From NCBI GenBank assembly GCA_964618545.1, contig CAZUBG010000004.1, positions 73 through 64,072 of the forward strand: 64,000 nt of DNA. The letters run 5' to 3'. Below the pieces are notes generated by a model that worked only from the letters and a program-made list of their open reading frames with translations, was not told where the DNA came from and ran no database searches. Numbering within the stretch: position 1 is the stretch's first letter; the number at the start of each line of letters is the position of its first letter. A program made the translations under genes and the position numbers. Source of the stretch: an uncultured Bifidobacteriaceae bacterium (GTDB taxonomy: Bacteria > Verrucomicrobiota > Verrucomicrobiia > Limisphaerales > UBA11358). Below, piece by piece: positions 1-61,510 of this stretch.

Positions 1-61
1 GGGGAAGGGTTGTGTTTACTGCGTTGCAGACGTTGCACCTGGGTCCGTTGAAGTTGCTCAC
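1..61 (-). CDS. 5' end of an unnamed CDS running off the left edge (GTG start at 59-61)
   Basis: Read by eye on the minus strand: AAGGAG about 6 nt upstream of a GTG, then an open frame (VSNFNGPRCNVCNAVNTTLP) to position 1. It starts 22 nt downstream of the stop of the 1253-aa ORF, so it is probably co-transcribed. It is absent from the ORF track because it is truncated. Confidence 0.35.
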   Translation of the reverse strand, partial: MSNFNGPRCNVCNAVNTTLP

Positions 62-83
62 GTTGTCTCCTTTTCGTTAATGG

Positions 84-3000
84 TTAGTTGTCTATGGGAA
101 TGGTAAAAACTCTGGCATTGGCCAGCGCCGAAGTGATCGCATGGTCGTAACCTCCCGCGCCGCCCGCGCCGGGGAGGATCGTCACTTCCGCCTCGTTGTT
201 TTCCACCGTATTGTCGGCAATAAATGGGATGCCGGAATCTCCGCCCGCGTCAAACAGCGCCGGGTTGGCCGAACACCATGCGACATCCAGATATGCGTAA
301 TTCTGCGGTAGCGCGATGACGGCGGTGTCTTGCAGCCCTTCCAAAAGGTAAACCAGCGCCGTCACGCCAACCATGCTTTGGGGTGGAATTTCATCATCAT
401 TAAGCACGAAGTCACCAAACCATCCTGTTGGAATGATGCCTCCGTCAGTGACGGAACCATCAAAGTAATGCAGGGGCGCAATCGGAGAAGTGGCGGCGCA
501 CAAATTCACGTCAAAATAGGCGTAAGCCCTCAAATAATCCCCGCCAGTGTCTTCAAAGAAATCAGCCGCAAACATTATTGACGAAGCAACCTGAGAAATT
601 GGGGGAGTAGTGAATTGGGCGTAATCACCCGCTTGAACCGACCAGCGCATCGGAACGGCGACCTGGTTTAGAATGAACGGAAGGTTAAGACGGGCATACA
701 GAGTCCGTGCGTCCGCAATGTCAACCCAGCGGTAGGTTTGCGCCACGGTCTGGAAGGTGGAATCGAAACCATAGGCAGCCCAGATAACCGACGCTGGCGT
801 GGTGGTTCCATAATTGTCATATGTAAACACAATTTCCGCAGCCAAGGGAGCGCCATACCCATCCGGCAGTGTCGCCTGCACCGTCATCCCAAGGGATCCC
901 AGGTATGTGCCGACCGGGTCAGCGCCCGTGGTGCCCGCCGCATTTGTGCTGGGTCCATTCCAACAGAAATAAGCCGTGCGAGGCCAGTACGTTTCCGGCC
1001 ATGGGGTGCCACTCCCGCCACCATTGGGCTGCTCCTCGTCGCCATCGCCGGGCGGCGTGGGGATTGCGACCGGGTAAAAAAACGGGATGAAGCTCAAGCC
1101 GGAACCGTCACCAACGCTGGTATCAAACGTGGCGGGGGAACCAATCAGTGGCGGATAAAGAAGTGGGTTACTGGGGTCTGCTGCGGTCCATGGCCGCAGT
1201 GGACAAGCAAGTGCGTTACACGAGAGGATGGTCGGGGTGGTGCCTGACGCCTGTGCCACCGTGACAATGCCGCCGGTGGCATTGACGGTGGCAACCACAA
1301 GGTTCATCCCGATTGGATCGCCAGCTTGATAACTGACACCCGGGTTTACGATGATGATGTTTGCCGGCGCAAAGTTCAGCGTAAACAGCATCGTATTCTC
1401 CGGAGAATCAGGCGGCAGCCACTTGGATGGCGGGGCGGCGTTCAGAAGGCCGGCCAGCGTGTTGTAGTGTTCGGCCTGGCATGGCAGGACATTCTCCGCT
1501 TCAACCGTGACCCCGTCAAAGGCTTCTCCCCCGTATGCGCCGCCAAAGTATGGGCTTCCCGGAAGCAGGCCGCCTGGGAAAGGAGCTCCGGCCAGCACCA
1601 CTTGGTAGTTATACAATCCGGCCGGGCTTCCGATGCTCTGAAACATCCAGTCGGTCAGCGGGCTGTTGCCGGGAAAGACGGAGGTGTTCTTTTCAATCCC
1701 CGCGCTCTCAAACGTCCCCAGGTCGTTCAGCCATGAATTAAACACCGACCACACATCCGGCGTCGTCGAGAACTGTCCCGGTCGGGATATGCCGGTCTCC
1801 GGCACCAGCGCCGGCGTCGCCACGGTGTCCACGCTGATCGGATTCGTTGAGTAAAACGGCACGAGGTTGGACTGCTGAAAAGTGTAGCAGTGGTCGGTGC
1901 GCGGGAAGTTCCACTGCATGAACCTGGTGGACGGGCTGGTCGGCGGGAAAATGCCGAACTCGTATGGCCATTCGTTGCCGGTGCCGCTGGAATTCCAGTA
2001 CCGCGTCTGGTTCAGGTAGATTCCCCTCGTCACAATCAGTGCCAGTCCATTGGCTTGAACTGAGAGAATAAAGACCCGGCCGTTGGTCGCCCCCCCCACG
2101 CCGTTGAATGTCGCGTTCAGCGGCCACGTCTCCTGCCAGGTCAGGATGTGGCCGTGGACGGTGGATTGCAGGTTAAAGTTGCCAGCCGTCACCACCGAGC
2201 CGGTCCCGGCCGCAGCGTTCTGTACGGTGTTCGTTATCAGGGACTCGGCGGTCGCCACACTGGTCATGACAGTCAGCAGCTCGGATGCTTCTGTCATCGT
2301 GCTCCCGGCATTCGTCACCGTCACCGTCGCGCTTCCCGTTTCAGTGGGATTCCCGTCGTCATCGTCACCCCGTTCATTGTAGCTGTAGTTCGTAGTGGCC
2401 GAAGTCGGGGCGATGCACCACATATTAAACCAGAACAACGGCAACACCACACTTGGCGCGATTGCCACCCCTCCAATGCCGGTTCCCGGCGTCTGCGACG
2501 GCCCCACCGCCACGGCCGGCACCGGCGTTGACCCGCCGGTGCAGAACGTCGCGAACGGGCTGCTCAGGTCAATCAATGCCAGCGTCACCGTCGCTTCCGT
2601 CGAATTGTCCCAAAAGGGGGCGTATAGCTCAATATTGGCGACCCCGGAAACCGTGATCGGGCGCTGGCTTATCCCGGACCCGGACAGCATGTTTGACAGG
2701 TTGGCGAACCCGGTGAACGGCAGCACCGCCGAAGTGCCGTTGCCCCGGAGAGCCACCATGACGTTGCCTTTGGAGATCGCCAGGTCGCCGAGCAGATCGC
2801 CCGTCCCAAGCGCCGGGAAGTATCCATATTTCGTCCCGTTTAGCACCGGCAGCGGATTCTCCGCGCTGCCCGGTGTGTACGATGCGTTATTCAACACTGG
2901 CGATGCGTCCCAGAACTGTGTGGCGTTGAATGTCTTGCCAAAATTCGTCGGGCTCACCGCCGCCAGCACGTCTGCGACGATGCCCGGGGCGAACGGTGCG

Positions 3001-3845
3001 GCGGCGCCGCCGGACGTCTCCAAGTGCTGAAGGAATCTTGGATCCCCTGATTCCATCCAATGGAAATAACTGCCGCATCCGCCCCACGTCCCGGATGCCA
3101 GCTTCCGTGCGCAGAACGATGCTCCAGCCCCGACCGTCTGTGTCACGCCGCCGAACGTCGCGCTAATGCTTCCATTCGAGCAGTTGTGCAGCCGCACAAA
3201 GCTGTACTTGTTCCAGGCGGACGACCAGGTGAAATTGCCAGCCACGAACACATCCACCGGCTTGAACAATTGCACATGCTCCGCCGTCGTCTGGTCCTTA
3301 AACGAAACCGCATAACTTGTGCCTCCAATGTTTACCGTCCACACCTGCAGGCTGACATCAAGACAGTTGATCAGCGGGATGGTCGTTTGGATCGTGCCGC
3401 CGCCCGTCGTGTAGATGGTCGCCACTCCATATGCCGTATAATTCGTCGTCGGCAATCCATTCGGATACACCGCCGCCAGCCAGGTGGCCCAGGGCGCATG
3501 GTTAAGCACCGCCACCCCCGTGGTGGACGAGTGCGACGCCACCGTGCAACCGGCCAGCAAACTCGCAAACGGGGCGTCATTGTATTGCCGGCAGAACAGC
3601 AAATAGACCCAAAACGGATTGCTGCCGAAAAAATTGGCGAGCCAGCTCTGGGCGGCCGGATGCAGGTTGGCGGGGGCCGTTAGTGGATTGAAAAAGAAAA
3701 ACGGACGGTCCCAATGGGTGTCCACCCCGGCCAGCACTGCCGAAAACCCGCCCAGCGCCGTCTTCATCTGCGCATCCGCCGCCTGAAAGATCGCATTCCA
3801 CTGCACCGCCGTCAGCGACGCCCCTGGATTGATGTAACTGATCAT
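84..3845 (-). CDS. Giant hypothetical protein (1253 aa), possibly a virion, tail-fibre or receptor-binding type structural protein
   Basis: Uninterrupted 3.76-kb ORF with an ATG at 3843-3845 preceded by GAAGGA. Composition is complex and rich in G/T/S/N/A, with no catalytic motifs I recognise. All overlapping ORFs are short with R/P-rich shadow composition. The function is guessed only from size, composition and context. Confidence 0.75.
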   Translation of the reverse strand: MISYINPGASLTAVQWNAIFQAADAQMKTALGGFSAVLAGVDTHWDRPFFFFNPLTAPANLHPAAQSWLANFFGSNPFWVYLLFCRQYNDAPFASLLAGCTVASHSSTTGVAVLNHAPWATWLAAVYPNGLPTTNYTAYGVATIYTTGGGTIQTTIPLINCLDVSLQVWTVNIGGTSYAVSFKDQTTAEHVQLFKPVDVFVAGNFTWSSAWNKYSFVRLHNCSNGSISATFGGVTQTVGAGASFCARKLASGTWGGCGSYFHWMESGDPRFLQHLETSGGAAAPFAPGIVADVLAAVSPTNFGKTFNATQFWDASPVLNNASYTPGSAENPLPVLNGTKYGYFPALGTGDLLGDLAISKGNVMVALRGNGTSAVLPFTGFANLSNMLSGSGISQRPITVSGVANIELYAPFWDNSTEATVTLALIDLSSPFATFCTGGSTPVPAVAVGPSQTPGTGIGGVAIAPSVVLPLFWFNMWCIAPTSATTNYSYNERGDDDDGNPTETGSATVTVTNAGSTMTEASELLTVMTSVATAESLITNTVQNAAAGTGSVVTAGNFNLQSTVHGHILTWQETWPLNATFNGVGGATNGRVFILSVQANGLALIVTRGIYLNQTRYWNSSGTGNEWPYEFGIFPPTSPSTRFMQWNFPRTDHCYTFQQSNLVPFYSTNPISVDTVATPALVPETGISRPGQFSTTPDVWSVFNSWLNDLGTFESAGIEKNTSVFPGNSPLTDWMFQSIGSPAGLYNYQVVLAGAPFPGGLLPGSPYFGGAYGGEAFDGVTVEAENVLPCQAEHYNTLAGLLNAAPPSKWLPPDSPENTMLFTLNFAPANIIIVNPGVSYQAGDPIGMNLVVATVNATGGIVTVAQASGTTPTILSCNALACPLRPWTAADPSNPLLYPPLIGSPATFDTSVGDGSGLSFIPFFYPVAIPTPPGDGDEEQPNGGGSGTPWPETYWPRTAYFCWNGPSTNAAGTTGADPVGTYLGSLGMTVQATLPDGYGAPLAAEIVFTYDNYGTTTPASVIWAAYGFDSTFQTVAQTYRWVDIADARTLYARLNLPFILNQVAVPMRWSVQAGDYAQFTTPPISQVASSIMFAADFFEDTGGDYLRAYAYFDVNLCAATSPIAPLHYFDGSVTDGGIIPTGWFGDFVLNDDEIPPQSMVGVTALVYLLEGLQDTAVIALPQNYAYLDVAWCSANPALFDAGGDSGIPFIADNTVENNEAEVTILPGAGGAGGYDHAITSALANARVFTIPIDN

Positions 3846-3883
3846 TTATCCTTCGTTTCTTTTTTGTTCGTGTCGGTCTTTTT

Positions 3884-4085
3884 CTTTGTGTTCTCTGCGT
3901 TCTTTGCGGTTAAAACCAGGCCGAGGTCCGGCTTTCGCGGTTAATTTTTTCCATTTCCCCGGCTTTCTTCGTTGCCTTCGTTTGCTTCTGTTAAATTTCC
4001 GCTTTCCGCTTTCCGCTTTTGTCTATGTGTTCTTTGCGTTCTCTGCGGTTAAATTTTCCCCGTTTCCGCTTTCTGCTTTCACCCC
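3884..4085. repeat. Intergenic modular repeat array A
   Basis: R1 GTGTTCTCTGCGTTCTTTGCGGTTAAA at 3888-3914 and a variant at 4027-4053. R2 GGCTTTCTTCGTTGCCTTCGTTTGCTTCTGTTAA at 3961-3994. CCGCTTT heptad runs at 3995-4020 and 4060-4080. A GGCCGAGGTCCGGC hairpin-type module at 3918-3944. Confidence 0.9.
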
Positions 4086-6725
4086 TCACATCCAAACCGC
4101 CCCCGTGGACGTGCTTCCGCCCCCGGCCCCCAACCGCACCTTGATGAGTTGCACCCCCGTTCCCGTGATCGCCTGCAGCGCCACCCCCACGCTCGGCGTG
4201 CCCCCCGCCACCAGGTACGCCCCGTTCGTTGAGAAGTCCGACCCGCCGGTCGAGGACAACCCAATCGCCTGGTTCACCGTCACCGGCCCCATCACCTGCG
4301 CGTAACTGTCCCCCGCCATCTGGAGCGGAAATGTCCCGCCCGTCGGCTCGTTGTGCCGCACCGTCACCCCCAGGAATACATTCGTCCCCGTCGCCGCCAC
4401 CGACGCCGGCGGCGTCGCCACATTCGCGCCCGCCGTGCCAATGATCGGCGATCCCACCGGCAGCGTCGCCGGCAGTCCCGTGGCTCCCGGCGTAAACCAG
4501 GTGTAATGCAGGTTCTCGTCCACCTCGCCGCGCAGCACCTTCTGAAACAGCTTCAGCAAATTCTGATTCTCCAGCGTGCGCAACCCCGCGTTCAACCGCT
4601 TCTGGTCCGCCGTCTCCTGCCGCAACTCCTGTTGCCCGGGAAACAACGAGTTCTGCAGGCTCCGCCGGTCCAGTTCCCGCTCCGGCTCGAACCGGTCCCG
4701 CGCGCGTTCCGCCGTGAAATCCACCACTTCAATGATTCCGTCCGGCCCCACCTGGATCTGCACCCGGTCAATGCACGAACTCGTCCCCGGAGCCAGCGCC
4801 TGCCCGAATTCCTCGATCGGCAGCTTCGGATTCCATTTCAAATTGTAACCCCCTTGCAGATAAAATTGCTGCACCAGCAGTAGCGCCTCCGCCACCGTGG
4901 CCGCCTTCTGATTTGCCGTCAGATTGTCCGCGTACGGGATTTCCGTGAACACTCCGGGATTGTTCGCGTCATTCAAAAACTCCTGCATCAGACCGTTCAC
5001 CGGTTCCACCCGGTTGCGCCCCGGCGTCGCCTGGTCCGCCGTATAGACCGGCTGCCCGCTCGCCGTCACCCACCCCGTCGTCCCCTGCCAAAACGTGTAA
5101 CGCTCCGCCTCGAACACCAGCGCCGCCATCACCGTCGGCGTCTGCAGTTGAAAGGCCGCGTTCAAAAATGTGTAATTGTTGGGATTGTTGGCCGGCGGCG
5201 TGATCAGGATCCCGTTCGGGTCCGGCGCCGCCACAAACACCGGCGTGTCAGCAATCACAAACCGGATGCCCTCCCCGCTGTCGTCAATCTGGAAATTCAC
5301 CGAACTCCAGCCCCGGCTCCCCGCGTTGAAAAATTTCTGGTTGATCCGGTCCGGCTGCGCCAGCCGGAACAAATCCTCCCCCACCTGATAACCCTGCACC
5401 GCCAGCACCCCGTTCCCGTCCACCGGCTGCGTCGGGTCCGCCGTCATCAACCCCGTCGCATAGTCCAGATACACCCGGCACAACAATTGGTCCGCGATCG
5501 GCGCGCTGTCCAGCGGGATCAACTTCCCCTGCGCATTCTGAATGTCCGTGAAATTCGGCTTGAACGCCCGGAACACCAGGCTCGATAGGTACAACGCCGC
5601 CGGCATGTCCATCCGCCACCGGCCGCTGAACTTCCGGTTGTCCGTGAAATTCGCCGCGTCCGCGTTCCCCGACCGCGCCGCGCGCAGCGCAATGTATTGC
5701 CCCACCGTGATCTCCAGCGCCATCGCCTTCGCCGCCCCGTACCCGAACCATTGATCCGTGTCCCCGGTGAAGGCCGTGAACGGTGTCATCACCCCCGTCG
5801 CCGGGTCAATCCCGCTCTCATTCTGGAAGATGTCCTGCACGAACAATTCCACGTCAATAAACTGACTCCACGCCGCCGCCCAATCCGCCTTCATCGGCAA
5901 ATTCAAAATCTGGTACCGGCTCCGATCCCCCAGCACAATGATGTTCGTGGCATTCTCCGTCAGCGTGATCCCCTGCCGCCGCTCATCCGCATTCACCGGA
6001 AACGGCAGCGGCAGCAGCCCGTAACCCTTGCGGTTGAACACCAGCCGGAAATCCCCCGCCCAGATCGGCGCCCCCTCGTCCTGGGCCGGACGCGGATCAT
6101 GACAGAACACCAGCCCCGTTTTTTCACAGACCAGGTTCAAAAAGGCGTCCAGCCGCATCCCGCTCGTCGCATCCATCTCAAAAATCGGCCCGTTCAGCAG
6201 CCCCGCCGGCCACAACCCGTTCCCCGTCAAATCCCATTCCCAGTCCGTGTAAACCGTCGGTGCCTGAAATGCATACTCCAAAATCTGCCATGCCATCAAT
6301 GGACTGTTGGTGTACGTCTTCGTCTGGCTGAACCAATTCTGCGGCAGAATGTGCCAGTAGCGCTTTATCCGCATCCCGTTGATCAGCCGCACATCCGGCA
6401 TGTTGAACGCCCCCAGCACCCAGTCCCAGGTCAGGAAATACCGCAAATCCACAAATTCCAGCGTCCGCAGCATCCCCGAACTCGACTGCACCAGCGTGTC
6501 CGATTTGCACACCCCCGCAAAATAATGCCCCCCGATCTGGATCGTCACCAGCGCCCCCGCCGTCACTGGCACCGTCGTGCCCACATATACCAGCGTCGCC
6601 GTCGCCGGCGACGAGCCCCACGAAAAACTCCCCGCCATGGACTGTGCCGCCAGCGTCCGCGCCGCCTGCGTCGCCCCTCCCCGCGGGGGGGCCCCGCAAT
6701 TAACCGTGATCGGTGCTCCATTCAT
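4086..6725 (-). CDS. Large hypothetical protein (879 aa), possibly a tail or baseplate-type structural protein
   Basis: 2.6-kb ORF with an ATG at 6723-6725. It contains a coiled-coil-like stretch (ERELDRRSLQNSLFPGQQELRQETADQKRLNAGLRTLENQN) followed by a G/T/A-rich C-terminal domain. I recognise no enzymatic motif. The function is inferred from context only. Confidence 0.75.
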   Translation of the reverse strand: MNGAPITVNCGAPPRGGATQAARTLAAQSMAGSFSWGSSPATATLVYVGTTVPVTAGALVTIQIGGHYFAGVCKSDTLVQSSSGMLRTLEFVDLRYFLTWDWVLGAFNMPDVRLINGMRIKRYWHILPQNWFSQTKTYTNSPLMAWQILEYAFQAPTVYTDWEWDLTGNGLWPAGLLNGPIFEMDATSGMRLDAFLNLVCEKTGLVFCHDPRPAQDEGAPIWAGDFRLVFNRKGYGLLPLPFPVNADERRQGITLTENATNIIVLGDRSRYQILNLPMKADWAAAWSQFIDVELFVQDIFQNESGIDPATGVMTPFTAFTGDTDQWFGYGAAKAMALEITVGQYIALRAARSGNADAANFTDNRKFSGRWRMDMPAALYLSSLVFRAFKPNFTDIQNAQGKLIPLDSAPIADQLLCRVYLDYATGLMTADPTQPVDGNGVLAVQGYQVGEDLFRLAQPDRINQKFFNAGSRGWSSVNFQIDDSGEGIRFVIADTPVFVAAPDPNGILITPPANNPNNYTFLNAAFQLQTPTVMAALVFEAERYTFWQGTTGWVTASGQPVYTADQATPGRNRVEPVNGLMQEFLNDANNPGVFTEIPYADNLTANQKAATVAEALLLVQQFYLQGGYNLKWNPKLPIEEFGQALAPGTSSCIDRVQIQVGPDGIIEVVDFTAERARDRFEPERELDRRSLQNSLFPGQQELRQETADQKRLNAGLRTLENQNLLKLFQKVLRGEVDENLHYTWFTPGATGLPATLPVGSPIIGTAGANVATPPASVAATGTNVFLGVTVRHNEPTGGTFPLQMAGDSYAQVMGPVTVNQAIGLSSTGGSDFSTNGAYLVAGGTPSVGVALQAITGTGVQLIKVRLGAGGGSTSTGAVWM

Positions 6726-6843
6726 GTTTCAATCATCCCGGTGGGGCGGCGCTGCGGCGCCGCCCAAATATTAGAACCAGCCGCAGGCTGGTAAAATCCC
6801 CTTTTTTGTTCGCATGTTTCTAGGTTTAATAAATTCCAGGTTT

Positions 6844-6925
6844 CCCGGCTTTCTTCGTTGCCTTCGTTTGCTTCTGTTAACTTTCTGCTTTTGTCTATGC
6901 GTTCTCTGCGTTCTTTGCGGTCAAA
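6844..6925. repeat. Intergenic modular repeat array B
   Basis: R2 at 6847-6880 is identical to the 34-mer at 3961-3994. R1 at 6896-6925 overlaps the 3' end of the 209-aa ORF. A separate perfect 9-bp GC hairpin (GGGCGGCGC TGCG GCGCCGCCC, 6744-6765) lies 18 nt upstream of the 879-aa start codon. Confidence 0.9.
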
Positions 6926-7524
6926 TATCCCTGTTTCTGCTTTAACTCTATGTCCACCACCCCCCAGCATCGCGCGATCGCGTCCAGTATTTCCCGGCTC
7001 TCCGCCGTCAACCCCGCCCGCCGGGCCTCGTCATAAACCCGCCAGAAATCCATCAGTTCCAACTGATGCTCCAATAACCGGTCATCCCCCGGTTGCCGCA
7101 GCAGCGCCACCAATTGATCCAGCAGCGGCATCCCCTCCTCTTTAAAATTATCATACGCCGCCCGCAGCTCCGGCGAATTTCGTAGCTTGCTCAGCGCCGA
7201 CCGTTCCAGCACCTCCACCTGCCCGAGCGTCAGCCCCAGGGCCTCGCCAATCTCCCGCTTCCCCCGGAACTCCCCCGGCTTCGCCCCGATCCCCAGTTTG
7301 TGTGGACAACGGTGGTCATTCTTCTTGTGCAGCCATTGCTTCCGCGCCTGGGCGCAGGCCGGGCAAACCCGCCGGTTCACTCGCCGCCAGACCTCCTTGT
7401 TGCCTTTGCCCTGAGACTGCCCCGTCTGAAATTTCAGTTTTATCCGTTTCTGCACATATTCAAACGGCTGTCCACAGTGGACACACCGCCCGCGCTTCAT
7501 TGCTTCATTTGCCTTTGTTCGCAT
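6895..7524 (-). CDS. Zn-ribbon protein with a sigma-70 region-4-like HTH (putative transcription regulator or late-gene activator)
   Basis: CVHCG...CPAC cysteine pairs lie in the N-terminal 60 aa. REIGEALGLTLGQVEVLERSALSKLR matches the sigma-70 region 4 / LuxR-type HTH pattern, and no region 2 is present. The start is ATG at 7524 or 7500. The last ~12 codons (LTAKNAENA) are encoded by repeat module R1. Confidence 0.65.
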   Translation of the reverse strand: MRTKANEAMKRGRCVHCGQPFEYVQKRIKLKFQTGQSQGKGNKEVWRRVNRRVCPACAQARKQWLHKKNDHRCPHKLGIGAKPGEFRGKREIGEALGLTLGQVEVLERSALSKLRNSPELRAAYDNFKEEGMPLLDQLVALLRQPGDDRLLEHQLELMDFWRVYDEARRAGLTAESREILDAIARCWGVVDIELKQKQGYLTAKNAENA

Positions 7525-7544
7525 ATTTCGCGGTTAAAAATTCC

Positions 7545-7787
7545 AGCCTTTTTCTTTGTGTTCTCTGCTTTCCGCTTTCAGCATTTGGTCTTTGCGTTCT
7601 CTGCGTTCTTTGCGGTTAAATTTCCCGTCTTTTCTTTCGGCCTCTGTGCCCTCTGTGCCTCTGTGGTTAAAAAATTTCAGCTTTCTGCTTTCCCGCTTTC
7701 CGCTTTGATCTATGTGTTCTCTGCGTTCTTTGCGGTTAAATTTTTCCGTTCCCGCTTTTCCGCTTTCCGCTTTCCGCTTTTGTCTTT
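7545..7787. repeat. Intergenic modular repeat array C
   Basis: R1 with three 9-mers at 7588-7620 and R1 at 7714-7740. R5 CCTCTGTGCCCTCTGTGCCTCTGTGGTTAAAAAA at 7641-7674. Heptad (CCGCTTT-type) runs at 7563-7580, 7677-7707 and 7745-7782. Confidence 0.9.
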
Positions 7788-10298
7788 TCACTTTTCCTCC
7801 TCGTGTTCTTTCTCGTATTTCAAAACCCCCTCGATGATGGCGAACAACGGTCCCTGCCGCGGATCCCCGTCCCTAAAAACCATCCCCACGTCCCCGATGC
7901 GCAATTCCGCCACCGGCTTCTTTGCCGCCTCCAGTTCCTCATCACTGATGTCCTGCAGCCCCAGCGGATGCAGGTCCACATAAAACCCCCACGCCGTCTT
8001 GCTCACCATGCTCCCCGGCCGGCCAAACCGCTTCTTCAACCCGATTTGCGACGGACCCGCGATGAAAAACTGATTCTTGCTCAATTGATCCCGCAAATCC
8101 TTGTAGCGCAGTGTCACGCTCAACCCCTGCTTGCGCAGGTAAATCTGAAGCTGGCTGATCGCCCCGTGCGGCTCGATGAACAGCTTGTAACTCGTCCACG
8201 GCCCCTGGTTCGGCTTGCCCGGCGGACAGGCGATTTTCGTCCCCTCCACCCGGAAACAATCACTCGAGATTTCCCCCGCGCTGTACGCCACGATCAGGTC
8301 CTGGATGAACACGTTCACATTCACATCCGTCTGCACGTCCACCGCCGTCGCCATCGCGTGTTCCACCAGAAACTTGCGGTATTCGATCAGTTCTTGGCCG
8401 CCGTGGCTCGCCAGCATCGCCGCCGCCGCCGTGAACGCCGCGTAACACACCGAATGGCTCACGCGCACCCGGTCCTGCACCCGGGCCAGATCCGGATGCC
8501 CCAGCCAGAAATCCACCTGCTTCAACGTGTACGCCACAAACTCCCGCCGCCGCACCAGCAGCTCGCGCCAGATCAAAAAGAAAAATTCATGGTGCGCCTG
8601 CATCCACTCAAAGTGATTCGCCAGCCGCCGCTGCTCGCTGATCAACACCTGCGGATACCGGCTTCGCATCGCCGCGTCGCTCGACGTGCTCTCCCCGCTG
8701 ACAATCGGCATCGTCCGGATCACCCGCTGAATCCCGTCCGGCGTCCACTTCCCGGCGAGTTGGCGGTTGTAGGAATCCCGCAGCAGCGGCTCTTTCTCCG
8801 GCGGAATCTGGTTCTGCCGGAACTCATCCAGCCACAGCGGCAGATTCGAATAATTTTCGAGCTGACACGCAATCCCCACCGCGCTCACATTCTTCGAGAT
8901 CAACCCCATCCCGGAGGGCACCCGGAAACCCGCCAGCGACATCAGCCACCCCACGAACGTGCTCTTCCCGCTCCCCATCTGCCCGCTGATCCACACGCTC
9001 GGAAAATTGTTCTGCTTGGCGAACAACTCCGGCGCCGCCAAATACCCCAGCACCGCCCCCAGACTCAGCCACCCCTCGTACCCCCCCGCCGTGTCAAAAA
9101 ACCGCCGGCTCACTTCCCGGAAAAACCCCCCGATCTGATTTTTGGGATCACCCTCATACAGGCTGCGCGCCATCGGCTCCCAATCCTCCGTGTCAAACTT
9201 CACCTGCTCCATGCACAACCCGCCGCCCTCCGGCGTCGGCGGCTGCATCTTCGGCCGTTGCTGGATGAATTCCAGTTCCCGTCCTCGTCGCGACAACGCG
9301 TAACCCTCCCCCTCATGCCAGAATATTCCGTCCTCATCCGGCAGGATGAAATGCCCGTCCCATTCAATCGCGCATTCATCAAACACCCACAACCCTTTCA
9401 AACACTCCGGCCCCGGCTCAATCTGGCTCGTTTCCGCTTTCCCGCTTTCCAAATTTCTGCTTTCGGCTTTTGCTTTTGCTGTCTTCAACTCGTACCACCC
9501 GCAATATTCAATCAGTTTGATCACCCGGTAGGCCGCTTCCTCCGTCACATCCTTTTGCAGCAATTGCAGCTCCGCATTCCCGGCCCCGCCCTCGCAACCC
9601 CAGGTGAAATTCCCCTTGCTCGCCACCCATTGCCGGAACTTTTCCGACCCCGCGTACATGTCGTTCGGCAGCACGTCCGCCCCGCCGATCTGCTGGCCCT
9701 CGCTCATCTCACCCTTGGTGTTTGTCAGCCGCACCAACCGCGTCACATTCCCGTCCGCCCCGCGCAGCAGATAAAGGCACTCCATCTTGAAATTGCTCAC
9801 CGGTTGCGGACATCCCTGCAAAATGTAATCTGCCAGCCACTTCTTCAGCCGGTGCTTCGTCGCCCCCGCCTCGCGCCGCAAATCCGTCGCCGCCAGCCAC
9901 AGGCTTTTGTTCGTCAGCTTCGTCACTGCCTTGCGCGTGTAGTAACAGCCCGGCAGCGTCATCGTCTTCCCGTTGGCCTTGCGTATCCATTCCTGCCGCG
10001 GCAGGCACCGCTCCAGCGCCGACGCATAACGCAGCGCCGCCATCTTGATGTCCGCCACCAGCGACTCATCCCGGCCCAGCTCCCGCAACTGCTTCAAGTC
10101 CCGGCGCTCCATCTCCCCCGCATTCGGCAGCAACGGCTCCCACAACAGCCGCTCCACCTCGCGCTGGACATAACGCTCCTCCTCGTCCGTGAACAATTCG
10201 AGCTGGCCGGGCTGGGACGGGTCAATCGCCGAGTCCAGGACCGCCTCAAAGGCGCGCCGCACCCAAGCATGTTGCTCCAGCGTGATGGCTGATGTCAT
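7788..10298 (-). CDS. P-loop NTPase, SF3 (D5/P4-type, DUF927-like) replicative helicase candidate
   Basis: 836-aa ORF with an ATG at 10296-10298. Walker A is GQMGSGKST and a Walker B-like motif is LPLWLDEF. Its position next to a primase gene fits the call, though the family name comes from memory of similar phage and island helicases. It contains an in-frame repeat module at 9427-9479. The mirror ORF 7803..10292(+) has R/P/Q/H shadow composition. Confidence 0.7.
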   Translation of the reverse strand: MTSAITLEQHAWVRRAFEAVLDSAIDPSQPGQLELFTDEEERYVQREVERLLWEPLLPNAGEMERRDLKQLRELGRDESLVADIKMAALRYASALERCLPRQEWIRKANGKTMTLPGCYYTRKAVTKLTNKSLWLAATDLRREAGATKHRLKKWLADYILQGCPQPVSNFKMECLYLLRGADGNVTRLVRLTNTKGEMSEGQQIGGADVLPNDMYAGSEKFRQWVASKGNFTWGCEGGAGNAELQLLQKDVTEEAAYRVIKLIEYCGWYELKTAKAKAESRNLESGKAETSQIEPGPECLKGLWVFDECAIEWDGHFILPDEDGIFWHEGEGYALSRRGRELEFIQQRPKMQPPTPEGGGLCMEQVKFDTEDWEPMARSLYEGDPKNQIGGFFREVSRRFFDTAGGYEGWLSLGAVLGYLAAPELFAKQNNFPSVWISGQMGSGKSTFVGWLMSLAGFRVPSGMGLISKNVSAVGIACQLENYSNLPLWLDEFRQNQIPPEKEPLLRDSYNRQLAGKWTPDGIQRVIRTMPIVSGESTSSDAAMRSRYPQVLISEQRRLANHFEWMQAHHEFFFLIWRELLVRRREFVAYTLKQVDFWLGHPDLARVQDRVRVSHSVCYAAFTAAAAMLASHGGQELIEYRKFLVEHAMATAVDVQTDVNVNVFIQDLIVAYSAGEISSDCFRVEGTKIACPPGKPNQGPWTSYKLFIEPHGAISQLQIYLRKQGLSVTLRYKDLRDQLSKNQFFIAGPSQIGLKKRFGRPGSMVSKTAWGFYVDLHPLGLQDISDEELEAAKKPVAELRIGDVGMVFRDGDPRQGPLFAIIEGVLKYEKEHEEEK

Positions 10299-10361
10299 AT
10301 TTTACCGCTCTGCTTTCCCCGGCGGCCGCCCCGCCCGCCCGCCCCGGCGCCTTCGTCCAAC

Positions 10362-10521
10362 TGTAGGCCCGGTCCCCTGACCGGGCGTCTCAATGGTTTG
10401 TAACCGACCAGGTCACGAGACTCTGATATTGCCCTGTCTTTTCTTCTCTGTGCCCTCGGTGCCTCTGTGGTTTAAAAACTCCGGTCTTTTCTTTGTGTTC
10501 TCTGCGTTCTCTGCGGTTAAA
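10362..10521. repeat. Intergenic modular repeat array D
   Basis: Hairpin module R6 TGTAGGCCCGGTCCCCTGACCGGGCGTC at 10362-10389, R5 variant at 10446-10477, and R1 at 10495-10521. Confidence 0.9.
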
Positions 10522-10530
10522 TTTCCCCGT

Positions 10531-11646
10531 TCAGGCCGGTGGCACCCACCATGTCACCGCCTCCGGCACCGGTGTCCCCGGCCACGCCGACACCTTCCCC
10601 CAGTGCTTTTCCAGCCAGGCCTTCACGTCCCGGCCCAGGACACCGGGCCCCAGACGCGAACTCCAATCCATCAGCGTCTCATCCGGCCACAAATGCAACA
10701 CGTCATCCCCGATCCCCGCTTGGCGGGCCAGCAGTTCAAACTGATTCAACTGGTTCCACGCGTAATGCGCCCACAAATCATTGCCGGCAAACACCTCCGT
10801 CCGCACCTTGCGCCCCAGCGCCCGGGCCCGGTCCTCAATGCGCTTCACATTCCCGCCCCGGATGTTCAACGGCTCCATGAACACCGTCACCGGCTCCAGC
10901 GCCGCCACCGCCGCCAGCGTGGACCGCAGGTCGGTCATCGAACAATCCGGATAGGCCGGCGCGACTGCCGCAAACACATGCAATCCCGCCGCCTTGGCCG
11001 CCCGTAGCGTCTCCAGCCGTTGCGACGGGGCCGGCGCCTTCGGCTCATAAATCCGCGCCAGGTCATTGTCCAGCGTTGGCAGCGACATCCCAAACGTCAG
11101 CCGGTTCCCGAACGCCTTCATCAAATCAAAATCCTGGCGTGCCAGCGGCGACCGCGTCAGCATCCGCACATTCAACGACGAATGCTCCAATATCAGTTCC
11201 AGCGCCCGCCGTGTCCCCAGTTCCAGAGTGGCAGAGGCGTCCCGCCTCTGATCCCCCGTTCCCGTTGGACTTTGAGTTCTGAATTTTGAATTCTCACGCC
11301 TCACCACCTGATACGGATCCGTCGTTGTGCAAAACATCACCGCCCGGTTGCCGTCCGCGTTCAGGCTCTGCGGTTTCTCCGCTTCCGCCTTCCTGAGCGA
11401 CGCCAGAAAAACCTTTTCATCAAACGGCCGGGGAAAAACATAATTGCCCCACTCTTCATCCGAATCCTCCACCCCGCGCGGTCGCAACACCGACGCCATC
11501 CGGTTCGTGGACACCTTGGGCACATAACAAAACGTGCAGCCATGCCCGCACCCCACCGCCACATTGCACGACCACACCGAGAGCGACTTGTGCTTGAAAT
11601 GGTTGCGTTCAATCGTCACCGGCTTTTTCCACCATTCTGTAATCAT
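10531..11646 (-). CDS. Radical SAM enzyme, SPL / COG1533 (DNA repair photolyase-like) type
   Basis: The CX3CX2C cluster motif is in VAVGCGHGCTFCYVP, and TTTDPYQ follows as in SplB-like proteins. The ATG at 11644-11646 overlaps the upstream stop (ATGA). There is an in-frame repeat-derived insertion at 11231-11295. Confidence 0.7.
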   Translation of the reverse strand: MITEWWKKPVTIERNHFKHKSLSVWSCNVAVGCGHGCTFCYVPKVSTNRMASVLRPRGVEDSDEEWGNYVFPRPFDEKVFLASLRKAEAEKPQSLNADGNRAVMFCTTTDPYQVVRRENSKFRTQSPTGTGDQRRDASATLELGTRRALELILEHSSLNVRMLTRSPLARQDFDLMKAFGNRLTFGMSLPTLDNDLARIYEPKAPAPSQRLETLRAAKAAGLHVFAAVAPAYPDCSMTDLRSTLAAVAALEPVTVFMEPLNIRGGNVKRIEDRARALGRKVRTEVFAGNDLWAHYAWNQLNQFELLARQAGIGDDVLHLWPDETLMDWSSRLGPGVLGRDVKAWLEKHWGKVSAWPGTPVPEAVTWWVPPA

Positions 11647-12077
11647 AATTTATTTGTTGTTGTTAATTGCGCCCGCAAAATCGCCCCCAAATCCGGCAGC
11701 CCAAATCTTGTCGGCCCGGTGCCCTCACCAGGCGTCCTCGTAGCCGCCGAGGTCACGAATGCCATGCCGAGGTTCGGCCTCTGATTAATTGAATCATCCA
11801 ATTCAACCACGCCGCCCGCCACACCCTGGACTGCCGAACCATCCCCCCTCTCCTTGGGGAGAGGGCCGGGGTGAGGGAGGTCATGTCTCGCCGCAGGCCC
11901 AATCTTCCCGGCCCCCGTTTCCGCTTTCCCGATTTCTGCTTTCTGCTTTTCACACTGCCGGCCCGGTTTCCACCCCGCCGAAACCTTGTTTTCTTCCTCC
12001 TGCAGAATCCGCAGCTTTTCCTTCAACTCGAACACCGGCAACCGCTCCAGATAACGGCGGTACCGCCCCGGCGTCAT
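11643..12077 (-). CDS. Hypothetical ORF composed largely of repeat modules (doubtful CDS)
   Basis: The track ORF is 11643..12206. I trimmed it to the ATG at 12075-12077 (MTPGRYRRYLERLPVFELKEKLRILQEEENK). Downstream of about 11960 the frame runs through heptad, CCCTCTCC-TTGG-GGAGAGGG hairpin, GGCCGAACCTCGGC and R6-like modules. Its stop overlaps the radical SAM start (ATGA). Confidence 0.3.
   Translation of the reverse strand: MTPGRYRRYLERLPVFELKEKLRILQEEENKVSAGWKPGRQCEKQKAEIGKAETGAGKIGPAARHDLPHPGPLPKERGDGSAVQGVAGGVVELDDSINQRPNLGMAFVTSAATRTPGEGTGPTRFGLPDLGAILRAQLTTTNKL
11709..11950. repeat. Modular repeat array E (further R1 copy at 12123-12149)
   Basis: Degenerate R6 at 11709-11737 and a GCCGAGGTTCGGCC hairpin at about 11766-11779. 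A hairpin CCCCTCTCCTTGGGGAGAGGGCCGGGGTGAGGG at 11844-11877. A heptad run at 11915-11950. R1 GTGTTCTCTGCGTTCTTTGCGGTTAAA at 12123-12149. Confidence 0.85.
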
Positions 12078-12144
12078 CGGCTGCGCCAGCTCCACGCGAA
12101 GTAAAATAATTTTTTCATCTTTGTGTTCTCTGCGTTCTTTGCGG

Positions 12145-12504
12145 TTAAATTTCCGCTTCCACGCTTTTTTGAATTTCGCTTTTCGGAAACGCCTCCGTCC
12201 GCTCATATTTTCCCCGGGCCGTCTTTTTCAGCCAGCCCTTGTCCTTTGAAAAGATCCAGATCAAGTGAGCGCAGTACTGGATCTTCCTGCCCAGCGCCGC
12301 CGCCAGCCCCTCGGCCGTGATTGGCTCCGCCATGACCCTCATCGCTTTCAAAACCTGCACATTCACCTCCGGCCCCCTGGGCCCGCTCCCCACTGACCGC
12401 CTCCTGGCCGGCACAACCGGTTCAGGTTGGACTTGGCTTGTTTCAGCTTTCTCGCTGTCGTCCGGCCGGGGTTCGGCCCGATTTCCGCTTTCATCCGCAC
12501 TCAT
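12145..12504 (-). CDS. Small putative winged-helix DNA-binding protein (119 aa)
   Basis: The ATG at 12502-12504 immediately follows the primase stop (TAAATG), which suggests translational coupling. The C-terminal half (ITAEGLAAALGRKIQYCAHLIWIFSKDKGWLKKTARGKYERT) looks wHTH-like. The N-terminal ~30 aa are repeat-encoded, and the stop is the TAA of a TTTAACC R1 module. Confidence 0.5.
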   Translation of the reverse strand: MSADESGNRAEPRPDDSEKAETSQVQPEPVVPARRRSVGSGPRGPEVNVQVLKAMRVMAEPITAEGLAAALGRKIQYCAHLIWIFSKDKGWLKKTARGKYERTEAFPKSEIQKSVEAEI

Positions 12505-14661
12505 TTACATTCCTTTCTCATTTTTGTTGTGTTTGGTTTCCGCCAGCAGTTTCACCAGCGCCCCGTCCCAGTCCGCCTTGCCCTTGGTGTTGCGCCACTC
12601 CACGGGCAGCGGCGCGTACAGCCCGCGCAGATGCCTTTCCTCCTTCAAATATTGGGCCAGGTAACGCATGTAGATCTTCGCGTCAAACCGCCGCGCCAGC
12701 GGCTTGTGGCTGTTATCCTCCTCGTCGAACGACACGATCACCCGCTGGCAGCCGGCCCCGATCAGCCAGTCCAGCAGATCCGCGCGATAATGCTTGTTGC
12801 GCACAAACGAAATCCCCGGCAGCGCGCACGACCCCACCGCCTCCCGCTTGTCCCCGTAATTCAAAAACGCCCCCGCCCCCGCCTCCTGCCAGAGCGCCGC
12901 CGCCTTGTATTCCCCCTCGCAAACCACCACCGTGAAAAACTTCTCCTCACAATGAACGCTCTCCCCCGTTCCCGATTCAAGAACCTGTCGCGGGATATAA
13001 ACCCGGCCGCTGCCCGCCGCCGTATCCGCCGCCGCCCCCCCCTTGTGTGGCCGTAACTTCACCAGCCGGCCCAGTTCGTCGAAGTACGGAATCAATACCG
13101 GCTGGCTCCAGCCCCAGTGCCACTTGTCATCCGGGTTGCGGCGCTCATTGTCCTCCTTGCGCCCCACCAGCCCCTTGCCGCAGAACTGCGGGTTGGGACG
13201 CCGATCCAGCCGCCGCTTCCGGTCCGATGGCAGCCAGAGCCCGCTGGCCGCCAGGTCATGCCAGTCAAACTCCCCCGTCATCGCCTGCAAAATCTCTTCG
13301 TTGCTCCGGGGATTCGCCCGGAAACCCAGCAGCGCGCACGTCTCCGGCGTCAACCCCCGCTTCTCCAGCAGCGACACCGGCACCCATTCCAACTTGCGCA
13401 CCACCCCCGCCGTCAGCGCCTCCGGCAACGGCGCGCCCCCCGGCAGCACCGGTCGCATCTCCGACGACGTCGGCGTCAGCTTGTCATAAAACCACCGCAA
13501 CGCCGCCATCCCCGGTGCCAGCGCGGCCGCCGGCGTCCCGTCGCCCGGCTTCCCCTTTTCCTCGTTTCCGCTGTTGCCAGGCCGAGGTTCGGCCCGGTTT
13601 CCGCATTCCGCTTTTTCGCCCGCGCCTTGAAACAACGCCACCACATTTTGCGCCACCTCCTTGATTGTACCGTCCGAAAGCGTCACGCCGCCATCCCCAC
13701 CGGCCACGGTGGAAAGGGCGGCGACTGACTGCGCTGTTTGCAACCCGTCAGCGGGATTGTTATGAACAGCCTGCGCAGCCAATGGCCCACTCGTCGGGAG
13801 CTCCGCAGACCCGGGAACAGCACTGCCCGCATTCGTTTCCCCGACATTAATTTCCGGTGCCGGCGCCGCGCCGCCATCACTCGGCGCGGACGCCGGCACG
13901 GGAACACCGCCCGACGGCGGTAAATTCTCAAACGAAATCTCCTCCGCCACCTCCGGCGGCATCACCGGATTCGGCCGCCCCCCTGTAGGCCCGGTGCCCC
14001 CACCGGGCGTCCCTTTCCTGAACGCCACCGGATTAAACCGGGCATCCACCCGGATCTCCCGCGGCTCGGCTCCCTTGGCGGGACCGACCAGTCCGCGCCG
14101 CTCCAACTCATCCATGATGCGCGCCGCCCGGGCATAACCCAGCTTCAGGCGCCGCTGCAGCAGCGAGACGCTGGCCCTTTGCTCCGCCCGGATGACATCC
14201 AGGCAATTCTGGATCAACTCCTCATCCTCGTGCTCCTCGGCCGGGGGTGCCGGTGGGGTTTTAATTTGCGGTGGATTTTGATCTGTGGAATTTGAAGTTT
14301 TCCTGGACGGCTCCTGCCACAGCCCGGCCATCTTCAGCAAATGTTCATAAGCCGGCGCCGGCCCCCATTCCGGCTTCTGCTCACTCAACCCCAGCTTCAA
14401 GTTGATATACCCCGTCTCCGCGACCACGCGGCCGCCCGTGGAACAATCCGGGTTATGACATTTGAAGAATTCGGCTCCGTCTTTGGTGTAGACCCCGGCC
14501 TTGTCTTTTTTACCGCAGAAGGGACATTGGGGAAACGACTTCCATTTATGATCAAACGGCGGCGCATCCCCCAGCTTGGAAATAACTCCCTTCAAGCCGC
14601 CCACGGCCGCGCGCACCTGCGAAAATTCCGGAAAATTTGGAGCAGAATCAGGCACACCCAC
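12505..14661 (-). CDS. Composite DNA primase: CHC2-type Zn finger + FtsK-gamma-like wHTH + Toprim domain
   Basis: The Zn finger is CPFCGKKDKAGVYTKDGAEFFKCHNPDC. The FtsK-gamma signature is RASVSLLQRRLKLGYARAARIMDELERRGLVGPAKGAEPREI. Toprim-like motifs are VVVCEGEYKAAAL and VIVSFDEEDN. The start is a GTG at 14659-14661 or 14653-14655 after AAGGGG. Three in-frame repeat modules lie between the domains. Confidence 0.75.
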   Translation of the reverse strand: MGVPDSAPNFPEFSQVRAAVGGLKGVISKLGDAPPFDHKWKSFPQCPFCGKKDKAGVYTKDGAEFFKCHNPDCSTGGRVVAETGYINLKLGLSEQKPEWGPAPAYEHLLKMAGLWQEPSRKTSNSTDQNPPQIKTPPAPPAEEHEDEELIQNCLDVIRAEQRASVSLLQRRLKLGYARAARIMDELERRGLVGPAKGAEPREIRVDARFNPVAFRKGTPGGGTGPTGGRPNPVMPPEVAEEISFENLPPSGGVPVPASAPSDGGAAPAPEINVGETNAGSAVPGSAELPTSGPLAAQAVHNNPADGLQTAQSVAALSTVAGGDGGVTLSDGTIKEVAQNVVALFQGAGEKAECGNRAEPRPGNSGNEEKGKPGDGTPAAALAPGMAALRWFYDKLTPTSSEMRPVLPGGAPLPEALTAGVVRKLEWVPVSLLEKRGLTPETCALLGFRANPRSNEEILQAMTGEFDWHDLAASGLWLPSDRKRRLDRRPNPQFCGKGLVGRKEDNERRNPDDKWHWGWSQPVLIPYFDELGRLVKLRPHKGGAAADTAAGSGRVYIPRQVLESGTGESVHCEEKFFTVVVCEGEYKAAALWQEAGAGAFLNYGDKREAVGSCALPGISFVRNKHYRADLLDWLIGAGCQRVIVSFDEEDNSHKPLARRFDAKIYMRYLAQYLKEERHLRGLYAPLPVEWRNTKGKADWDGALVKLLAETKHNKNEKGM

Positions 14662-14823
14662 CCCCTTGAAAAGAAACCGGAAAAAAAGTTAAAAAAAGAA
14701 GAAATCCAGCAGCTTGGGCATACTCTGGGCATACCCCCATCAAAACCCCCAATGAAATCAAGCGCCAGAGAAATACGTATGCGTACCATGCGAGAGATTC
14801 GTCGGCTGCCTTTGCCTTTTCCC

Positions 14824-15023
14824 TCTCTGCGATCTTTGCGATCTTTGCGGTTAAACATTCCCTGTGTTTCTTGTTTCCGCTTTGGTTTTCCCATCCGTGT
14901 TAATCCGCGAAATCCGTGGTCAAAAACGCCCCGTCTTTGCGCTCTGCGGTTAAATTTCCCCGCATCAGATCATCCCCGGTGAAGGCTGTCCGAATTGTAG
15001 GCCGGGTCCCCTGACCCGGCGTC
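14824..15023. repeat. Modular repeat array F at the right edge of the phage-like block
   Basis: R1 variant with three 9-mers TCTCTGCGATCTTTGCGATCTTTGCGGTTAAA at 14824-14855. Module CCGTGTTAATCCGCGAAATCCGTGGTCAAAAA at 14895-14925. R1 at 14933-14954. Hairpin module R6 at 14996-15023. Confidence 0.9.
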
Positions 15024-15330
15024 GGCTGTCAAACCGGGTCAAACTCAATCCAACCTTTCAACACAGCCGGGCAATTGGTCCCCCGCAAGCCACTCCATCT
15101 GGCTAAGGCATTGAACCAACGGACTTTACCCACAAACATGCCTTCACCATAATCTAAGTCGTCATTTCAGAAACGCAAGGGGTCACCCGTCGTCAGACCC
15201 GTTGACCATCGGGGGCAGGGCCAGGTGGCGCCCGTCAAAAACCGCCGCCAAAAGAATTTGAAATTAACGCCCGGCTGGGACATGATGCAGGTTCGCTTTG
15301 GAATTCCAGTTTGGGAATTCCCCGCTTTAC

Positions 15331-61392: not shown

Positions 61393-61416
61393 GCCAGTTG
61401 GCCCGGACATGAACCC

Positions 61417-61444
61417 GACGCCGGATCAGGGGACCCGGCCGACA
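61417..61444 (+). repeat. Host-region copy of hairpin module R6 (GACGCCGGATCAGGGGACCCGGCCGACA)
   Basis: It is the reverse complement of the 10362 and 14996 copies, allowing a few mismatches. It lies 25 nt downstream of a plus-strand gene, so it has the same orientation relative to transcription as the minus-strand copies. Confidence 0.65.
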
Positions 61445-61510
61445 GAGAGAGTGGGTATTGCGATATTGGCCTGACACCTCGCCGGCGGGCTTCGTGCTGA
61501 CGTGAAAGGT

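Follow-up and report, generated by a model that had tools for sequence, protein, structure and literature searches.

How did the same short DNA repeats come to be read in frame inside the replication genes of a mobile element, and did they take part in assembling those genes? The question is raised by a 64,000-nt stretch of an uncultured Verrucomicrobiota bacterium (contig CAZUBG010000004.1 of assembly GCA_964618545.1, positions 73 to 64,072; this whole stretch is called the window hereafter), in which an earlier note, made from the sequence alone, had described repeat modules inside the genes for a helicase and a primase. Three explanations had been offered: repeats exonised as flexible linkers, separate genes fused by read-through of intergenic modules, or over-called open reading frames (ORFs) spanning several smaller genes. 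Our analysis favors, at a probability of about three in four, the reading that positions 1-15050 belong to a replicating element, phage-like or integrative, from a Verrucomicrobiota host, and that copies of a host repetitive extragenic palindromic (REP) sequence together with repeats of the element's own lineage were absorbed in frame into linkers that were already hypervariable, with no gene fusion. The remaining 49 kb of the window (15051-64000) is host flank. The modules, which had been treated as one system, are of mixed origin with at least two sources, namely the host REP, here termed R6, and repeats specific to the element or virus lineage. According to the same reading, the latter comprise the GCGGAAA heptads, a 9-mer pair plus TTTAACC, and a TTCAAA module; the GGCCGAACCYCGGCC hairpin, found in the window only, may be another.

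At the five module sites listed by the earlier note, the coordinates and in-frame translations matched exactly, and the repetition is real at the DNA level. When patterns were counted in the window against 100 dinucleotide shuffles per pattern, the 27-nt R6 pattern (0-2 mismatches) gave 4 matches versus 0.00 expected, GGCCGRGGTTCGGCC gave 3 versus 0.06, the heptad triplet 14 versus 0.10, and the 9-mer pair followed by GTTAAA 8 versus 0.00. All these matches were confined to 3850-15050 and to the plus strand, antisense to the minus-strand genes; therefore, every copy is co-oriented with transcription. By itself, the 11-mer GGAATTTGAAG was weak, with 7 matches in the window versus 1.97 expected and only one of them in the element. 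A profile built with nhmmer from six copies of the 32-nt TTCAAA-type module in a related locus (L003) found its best match in the 64-kb window at 14272-14303 (-) in the primase gene (E 6.4e-4) and its second-best at 11265-11290 (-) in an insert of a radical-SAM gene (E 0.68). The same module DNA recurs between genes and within genes, and the GGCCGAACCTCGGC hairpin yields AEPRP in the primase and in a 119-aa ORF but RPNLG in a 187-aa ORF, so the unit that is repeated is the DNA and not the peptide. In most modules the sense strand is free of stop codons in all three frames, and in the heptads and the AEPRP hairpin none of the six frames is closed, which is why modules are tolerated in coding DNA and why ORF finders run through them.

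The primase gene (12505-14661, -) encodes a zinc ribbon (aa 7-120), an FtsK-gamma domain (aa 143-205), a long disordered linker, and a DnaG-type catalytic domain (aa 378-718), the order of domains that the earlier note had read, with the modules lying between them. The FtsK_gamma domain was matched by Pfam at E 8.9e-23, and in Foldseek searches the AlphaFold2 model matched the RNA polymerase domain of Staphylococcus aureus DnaG (E 6.5e-4) and FtsK gamma (TMt 0.7-0.87). The gene call of the sequence collection begins at 14616 (P0001). Segments with a predicted local distance difference test (pLDDT) score below 50 cover residues 121-142, 206-333, and 343-377, and each of the three primase modules falls in one of them. 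The A/C-rich TTCAAA-type module in the first linker (14272-14303, -) is read in frame as RKTSNSTDQNP (aa 120-130) directly after the conserved GLWQEP, inside the segment 121-142; at this site L003 carries GCCAGAA heptads and the closest relative, L001, a different direct repeat. With three different repeats after GLWQEP in three relatives, the primase linkers are recurrent landing or expansion sites. An extended R6 module (13976-14041, -) follows the FtsK-gamma domain in frame, at about aa 207-229 (ARFNPVAFRKGTPGGGTGPTGG), and consists of a small CCGGTTTAATCCGG hairpin and a GTAG-tagged REP hairpin; residues 217-227 are GTPGGGTGPTG. Opposite this module, L001 shows a clean gap of about 51 nt and L003 one of 45 nt, and none of the other 24 homologues has it. 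No further copy of the CCGGTTTAATCCGG sub-hairpin occurs within the window, and we do not claim a second R6 insertion in the segment of L003 preceding the gamma domain (RFNPAAFNK...), where the likeness to CCGGTTTAATCCGG is clear for about 20 nt only. The third module (13549-13620, -) joins heptads to a GGCCGAGGTTCGGCC hairpin and is read in frame as GEKAECGNRAEPRPGNSGNEEKGK (aa 348-371), with pLDDT below 50 over 343-377; it is 79% identical over 52 nt to 12441-12492 (family D20). Relative to L003, the GGCCGAGGTTCGGCC hairpin is a 15-nt insert within a purine-rich tract, and its predicted RNA fold has an energy of -17.6 kcal/mol (z -3.6).

The replicative helicase gene (7788-10298, -), which is of the Cch/MCM-like AAA+ type, carries an imperfect tract of GCGGAAA-type heptads (9427-9479, -) read in frame as AKAKAESRNLESGKAETS (aa 274-291). 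The tract lies in a hypervariable gap between the conserved motifs IEYCGW and GLWxxDEC. In the AlphaFold2 model (mean pLDDT 84; Foldseek match to SCCmec Cch 5dgk, E 5.8e-12), the main segment below 50 is 275-296, the others being 4-5 residues long, and the module forms a 22-residue loop joining two strands of one N-terminal region. All four modules of the primase and helicase thus sit in segments with pLDDT below 50, as the suggestion of disordered linkers had anticipated; by a simple product of segment fractions, (197/718)^3 x 35/836, such a placement would arise by chance at roughly 9e-4.

Alignment with homologues decided how these genes acquired their architecture. The 24 full-length homologues aligned with the window's primase all have a zinc ribbon, a linker, FtsK-gamma, a long variable linker, and a conserved C-terminal core, and nearly all of them are without these modules, whose residues occupy hypervariable, gap-rich columns of the family alignment. 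For the helicase, 59 homologues were found, mostly at 97-100% coverage, and 30 of these are full length with the same domain order; identities of the full-length primase and helicase homologues range from 36 to 72% at 97-100% coverage. A metagenome scan for helicase relatives returned 32 loci, most of which have no repeat that recurs both in the helicase gene and in the DNA outside it, and when the loci of 18 relatives were compared by exact 14-mers, the helicase gene in most of them had only scattered, chance-level matches to the remainder of its locus. Because nearly all full-length homologues are without modules, the domain architecture is older than the modules, which decorate linkers that were already hypervariable and did not make the multidomain proteins. 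The proposal that separate genes were fused by read-through of intergenic modules is contradicted by the same homologues, and the flexible-linker proposal is borne out by the hypervariable columns, the low-confidence segments, and, in the primase and the radical-SAM gene, lineage-specific indels.

The locus L003 is syntenic with the window for the primase, radical-SAM, and helicase genes and lacks the window's module set. It has eight copies of the TTCAAA module as well as GCCAGAA heptads, several in frame elsewhere, including a Toprim loop and two C-terminal tails. DNA alignments showed that the R6 and hairpin inserts of the primase and the insert of the radical-SAM gene are missing in both L001 and L003, the primase inserts also in 24 other primases, and are lineage-specific indels in multiples of three. 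The expectation that the modules would be lineage-specific insertions thus holds for the primase and radical-SAM modules but not for the helicase heptads, since the window, L003, and L005, and these alone, have heptads at that position, in differing unit numbers. At that site the closest relative, L001, has unrelated GC-rich sequence. Nor does the helicase tract look like a phase-variable contingency tract, as its units are imperfect (GCAAAAG CAAAAGC CGAAAGC ...). A second metagenome holds the same element (L152, Ga0181516_10070424, 99.94% identical to window 7002-8763), and there the intergenic heptad and 9-mer arrays show zero indels; over that intergenic part, the heptad tracts have the same length in both samples.

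In-frame copies extend beyond those first listed. The radical-SAM gene (10531-11646, -) contains an insert at about 11222-11292 (-), ENSKFRTQSPTGTGDQRRDASAT, made of a TTCAAA-type module and a CAGAGGCGGGACGCCTCTG hairpin; it amounts to 45 extra nt relative to the L003 orthologue and is predicted to fold as a hairpin. Four in-frame modules lie at 11701-11958 (-) within the 187-aa ORF (11643-12206, -), namely an extended R6 (11701-11760), the GGCCGAACCTCGGC hairpin (11765-11779), a GEGRGEG-type hairpin (11845-11870), and heptads (11911-11958), and both the N- and C-terminal parts of this ORF are homologous to L003 3302-3727. Among all DNA sampled, the QRRDASA and GEGRGEG hairpins are single copies. 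An Rfam scan gave no match at gathering score; the sub-threshold match to Whalefall-1 RNA at 11844-11882 (+), on the GEGRGEG-type hairpin, scored 23.5 bits against a gathering score of 37 and is probably due to chance.

The note's suspicion of over-called ORFs was misplaced for the helicase and primase, whose homologues are full length, but probably right for some of the small ORFs. Heptads and a GGCCGGGGTTCGGCC hairpin (12420-12497, -) lie between the primase stop and the next gene's probable true start and nominally encode aa 3-29 of the 119-aa ORF (12145-12504, -). This module-encoded N-terminus is probably an over-call because the collection's gene call at the locus begins at the GTG of V47 and gives 73 aa (P0180), so that the gene is probably 12145-12366. 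No homologue of the ORF was found besides the window's own 73-aa gene call, and the gene at this position in L003 is unrelated. Equally, the ORFs of 82, 85, and 100 aa (6722-6970, 7534-7791, and 14592-14894, all -) consist almost wholly of stop-free modules, with peptides such as FNRKERRERKD and AESGKAG, and are probably spurious. At the other termini, the observations stood: the 119-aa ORF ends on the TAA of a TTTAACC module (12145-12147); the 209-aa ORF (6895-7524), which has weak matches to sigma-70 region 4 and a zinc ribbon, reads through a 9-mer pair with a GTCAAA variant (6903-6925, -), that is, through a TTTGACC variant, into the tail ...LTAKNAENA; and a heptad-like tract (47867-47910, -; families D5 and D7) gives the host VanZ-like ORF (47867-48496, -) its C-terminal tail, GTRENGKTKTAES. 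Modules do supply stop codons, as claimed, but incidentally. The TAA of TTTAACC is the stop of the abutting ORF (at least 80 codons) in 10 of 36 cases, with about one third expected, and we rejected the idea of a dedicated stop-codon donor at this chance level. The stop of the VanZ-like ORF overlaps the listed TTG start of a downstream 820-aa membrane ORF.

R6 has the form GTAGGCCCGGTSCCC..ACCGGGCGTC, a GTAG tag followed by a stem-loop, and so has the structure of a GTAG-type REP as defined previously (PMC3733652). Among the four copies in the element, two begin with GTAG plus GCC exactly and one has GTCG; the predicted stems are 6-8 bp of GC pairs with a 4-nt loop. Besides the copies in the primase gene and 187-aa ORF, there is an intergenic extended R6 between the radical-SAM and helicase genes (10354-10420, -; family D9) and an intergenic R6 at the element/host junction upstream of aspS (14988-15042, -), which is 79% complementary over 47 nt to the copy on the host side (pair I1). 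The latter (61398-61445, +; I1, I9) begins 6 nt past the stop of a TPR-like ORF (60601-61392). An exact-pattern scan using one genome per species found R6 in >107 stretches among the matches listed, almost all in Verrucomicrobiota metagenome-assembled genomes (MAGs), a single one of which could carry it on a dozen or more contigs, and it occurs at several sites on the complete chromosomes OY760937.1 and OZ260084.1. In Verrucomicrobiota, R6 is therefore a dispersed, high-copy REP; in the window's own host, one copy was seen in the 49-kb flank. It is mostly extragenic, since 74 of 122 copies (61%) were intergenic versus 14% of random positions in the same loci, as judged by crude longest-ORF gene calls.

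A RAYT-type gene (REP-associated tyrosine transposase) was found in another genome, differing from that of the window's host, at L022 556-1317 (-) on JAKLFB010000047.1. It matched NCBIfam NF047646 (REP_Tyr_transpos) at E 5.7e-21 and carries the HUH-like motif MPDHLHL. In-frame REPs split the gene, which is why its 74.9 bits fall slightly short of the 80-bit cut-off. Three R6 copies lie on one side of it, two on the other, and one inside; the gene is interrupted in frame by R6 and by a second REP of the GRVPSRG type. Host ORFs read R6 in all three phases (TPGQGTGPT, DAGSGDPAY, and RRVRGPGLQ), and in-frame copies with Pfam domains on both sides occur in a kinase-LRR-FGE protein, an Eco57I-type enzyme, an HrpA-like helicase (where R6 lies inside the OB domain match), and a subtilase. 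For hosts, we rejected the idea that R6 invariably points the same way as the gene upstream of it; intergenic copies there lay 26 versus 23 relative to the nearest gene's 3' end. The density of R6 is 4 copies in about 11 kb of the element versus 1 in 49 kb of host flank; in Pseudomonas the reverse is reported, with mobile elements mapping to "REP deserts" (PMC3390384).

The other families have a different distribution. Across 744 kb of host loci from Verrucomicrobiota there was no copy of the 9-mer module, which is present in 28 IMG/VR stretches, and heptad triplets, with 1 copy in the same host loci, are present in 21 viral stretches. Neither these nor the A/C-rich modules are palindromic, and the 23-nt pattern of heptad plus AEPRP hairpin had no exact match in IMG/VR. 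The 23-nt copies of the 9-mer pair (3892-3914, 4031-4053, 6903-6925, 7598-7620, 7718-7740, 10499-10521, 12127-12149, and 14833-14855) are co-oriented with the genes, and the module looks like a lineage-specific protein-binding or regulatory site, possibly stoperator- or promoter-like. In the related locus L149, five tandem 20-nt units of TGACCGCTTCCAGAAGCGGT at 3679-3778 each form a small hairpin and are iteron-like; that locus also has repeat families of its own with a 7-8-nt period.

These results are compatible with a stepwise process. The element's intergenic spacers are built from several short-repeat families co-oriented with transcription, and R6 belongs to a host-type GTAG REP family dispersed in Verrucomicrobiota and associated with a RAYT (IS200-like Y1) transposase. 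Copies landed in, or expanded within, coding DNA, as the insertions seen against orthologues show; R6 may have arrived by RAYT-type single-strand transposition, and the heptads and A/C-rich modules may have arisen by slippage or illegitimate recombination. As the modules are stop-free, any insertion of a multiple of three would leave the ORF open, and selection would presumably purge the copies except where extra residues are tolerated. The surviving copies are located in disordered interdomain linkers, surface loops, and termini. The products would be passenger peptides (TPGGGTGPT, AEPRP, and AESGK-type runs) in a conserved primase, helicase, radical-SAM protein, and 187-aa protein, with FRKGTPGGGTGPTGGRPNPVMPPE, GNRAEPRPGNSGNEEK, and AESRNLESGKAETSQ as predicted module-encoded segments.

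Several observations weigh against this account. The evidence from low pLDDT is partly circular, in that alignment gaps at insertions themselves reduce confidence, and the translation of the module segments is something we infer. The heptads shared at one helicase site by three diverged relatives may have been retained for a function and not as neutral passengers. No polymorphism between empty and filled sites was seen for any module, the sole same-strain contig (L152) covering none of the in-frame sites. No RAYT gene was found in the window, which has a single R6 copy in its 49 kb of host flank. Finally, the element's modules are all co-oriented versus no R6 bias in hosts, hinting at selection or a strand-specific mechanism.

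Some of these points would be explained if the in-gene modules were functional cis elements of the replication genes, such as origin iterons, helicase- or primase-loading sites, RNA hairpins or unstructured tracts tuning translation or mRNA stability, or operator-like protein-binding sites. Both replication genes contain modules, each of them oriented with transcription, heptads persist at one helicase site in three loci, the element is rich in R6, and the phage lambda origin offers a precedent. We nevertheless consider this unlikely, as the same modules also occur in the radical-SAM gene, the 187-aa ORF, and about ten spacers, with no single origin-like cluster, and most orthologous helicases and primases have none. 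The sequence that the closest relative has in place of the helicase tract is unrelated to it, R6 is found throughout host genomes as a REP and turns up within host proteins of unrelated kinds, and neither an Rfam match at gathering score nor a surplus of promoter- or terminator-like sites over shuffles was found. A lambda O-type origin would be one cluster of iterons conserved with its initiator gene; the modules here are scattered over 3850-15050. Quite unlikely as well, in our judgment, is that the co-oriented repeats make up an active, element-borne system and that the in-frame modules are footprints of domain shuffling. The 9-mer module and heptads would then be putative, stoperator- or promoter-like binding sites for an element protein, for example, the product of the 209-aa ORF, and these, along with host REPs that the element had captured, would provide recombination joints at which linkers or whole domains are swapped, a candidate being the host-like FtsK-gamma domain bracketed by modules. 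We keep it in the account because of the strict co-orientation, the richness in REPs, and the three different repeats at one primase site in three relatives.

Two further explanations are highly improbable. One holds that the resemblance arose from selection at the protein level for similar low-complexity, charged, or Gly/Pro-rich linkers converging on codons. The segments are indeed disordered linkers, and homologues too have Pro/Ala/Glu-rich linkers of variable length, but it is already contradicted by identical DNA read in different frames into unrelated peptides, and it leaves unexplained the intergenic copies of this DNA, the preserved complementarity of the hairpins, and the fit of R6 to a 27-nt pattern that shuffles never produced. 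The other is that the long ORFs are artefacts, smaller genes joined by read-through of stop-free modules, or recent read-through fusions. Modules are open in most frames and ORFs extend through them, the 119-aa ORF is probably over-extended, and three small ORFs are made solely of modules; against this, module-free full-length orthologues (25 primases and 30 helicases) keep the single-ORF architecture, and the AlphaFold2 model of the helicase is a single coherent fold whose match to Cch spans the module site, with the module as a loop between two strands of the same N-terminal region. In-frame absorption into pre-existing linkers remains our preferred reading.

The precedents for such absorption are close. 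GTAG and CGTC REPs were defined by Di Nocera, De Gregorio and Rocco (2013, BMC Genomics 14:522; PMC3733652), the former by an unpaired GTAG, or a close variant, beside a GC-rich stem of 5-13 bp with a short loop. They are mostly extragenic, with a minority wholly inside ORFs, where the inserts encode about 10-30 aa of "REP-decorated" proteins; the intragenic copies are most numerous in the verrucomicrobium Opitutus terrae, many of them in replication and repair genes and RNA helicases, and those authors proposed a neutral location in flexible linkers or loops while noting that N-terminal cases are often misannotated starts (PMC3733652). The GTAG tag, the GC stem-loop, the intragenic minority, and the location in replication genes and linkers are all matched here, and the warning on N-termini applies to the 119-aa ORF; the difference is that the carrier is a mobile, phage-like element and not a chromosomal housekeeping gene. 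In systems of REP doublets and their transposases (REPIN/RAYT; Nunvar 2010, PMC2817692; Bertels and Rainey 2011, PMC3116915; Ton-Hoang/Messing 2012, PMC3479197), the likeness lies in the GTAG tag and hairpin and in the arrays flanking a RAYT-type gene in one Verrucomicrobiota MAG, whereas the element's copies are single and co-oriented instead of inverted doublets, in a window without a RAYT gene. Moreover, R6 is only one among several co-occurring families, of which the heptad, 9-mer, and A/C-rich modules are not REPs. Like decorated proteins, the carriers here share their module DNA with intergenic sites, in frame and stop-free within a conserved ORF, in a tolerant linker, loop, or terminus.

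A classic parallel is provided by the Rickettsia palindromic elements (RPEs), reportedly described by Ogata et al. in 2000 as selfish repeats found in frame in coding genes at fold-compatible sites. There, too, the same element lies both between and inside genes, but RPE-1 is 100-150 bp long and resides in a reduced obligate intracellular genome, whereas the present modules measure 15-70 bp, belong to several unrelated types, and are borne by a mobile element. Mycobacterial interspersed repetitive units (MIRUs), from the work of Supply et al. in 1997, are said to be intergenic direct repeats in operons whose small ORFs overlap the flanking stop and start codons; our modules similarly contribute termini and stop codons, although MIRUs are 46-101-bp tandem units in the chromosome and stop donation here is at the level of chance. 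The lambda origin lies inside gene O, and its iterons encode an interdomain linker. Repeats in a replication-initiation gene, at a domain boundary and translated as a linker, recall this arrangement, but the lambda iterons are unique to the origin and bound by O, unlike modules spread over 11 kb that include non-replication genes and spacers and are missing in most orthologues. The phenomenon thus belongs to a known class, intragenic REP/RPE-like insertion, and reveals no new mechanism; what is distinctive is the mobile replicon as carrier and the mixture with non-palindromic, lineage-specific repeats.

As for the element itself, it is perhaps not a classical phage but a self-replicating island. 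Structurally, the helicase matched the MCM-like helicase Cch of SCCmec best, and no helicase relatives were found in IMG/VR. Two large ORFs (84-3845 and 4086-6725) have no Pfam or PHROG match, and in the relative L001 a tyrosine integrase adjoins the primase. The FtsK-gamma domain of the primase (window 14047-14235, aa 143-205) is 77-82% identical to gamma domains of Verrucomicrobiota FtsK and is kept in all primase homologues; a DNA-reading domain of the FtsK-orienting polar sequence (KOPS) type is unusual on a primase. Within the hypervariable linker, many homologues share a semi-conserved motif, NVG..GSG(D/N)P...GPT (about 13760-13860, aa ~268-300; columns ~503-545 of alignment A1), which may serve as a short linear motif for interaction or as a DNA signal embedded in the gene. 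In measuring module load, we dropped the fraction of repeated 12-mers, which scales with length and is hence uninformative.

For the annotation of Verrucomicrobiota and their mobile elements, the consequence is that stop-free modules swell ORFs: small genes are called that are spurious, N-termini are falsely extended, and C-termini gain odd tails. Real proteins also receive module-encoded peptides, of which TPGxGTGPT, DAGSGDPAY, and AEPRP are examples, and recognizing the modules averts false calls of "fusion" or "novel domain." The locus represents a case in which a host REP family sits in the essential genes of a mobile replicon and in which repeat families turn over fast at the same permissive linkers, and it offers a convenient natural system for how selfish repeats turn into protein linkers.

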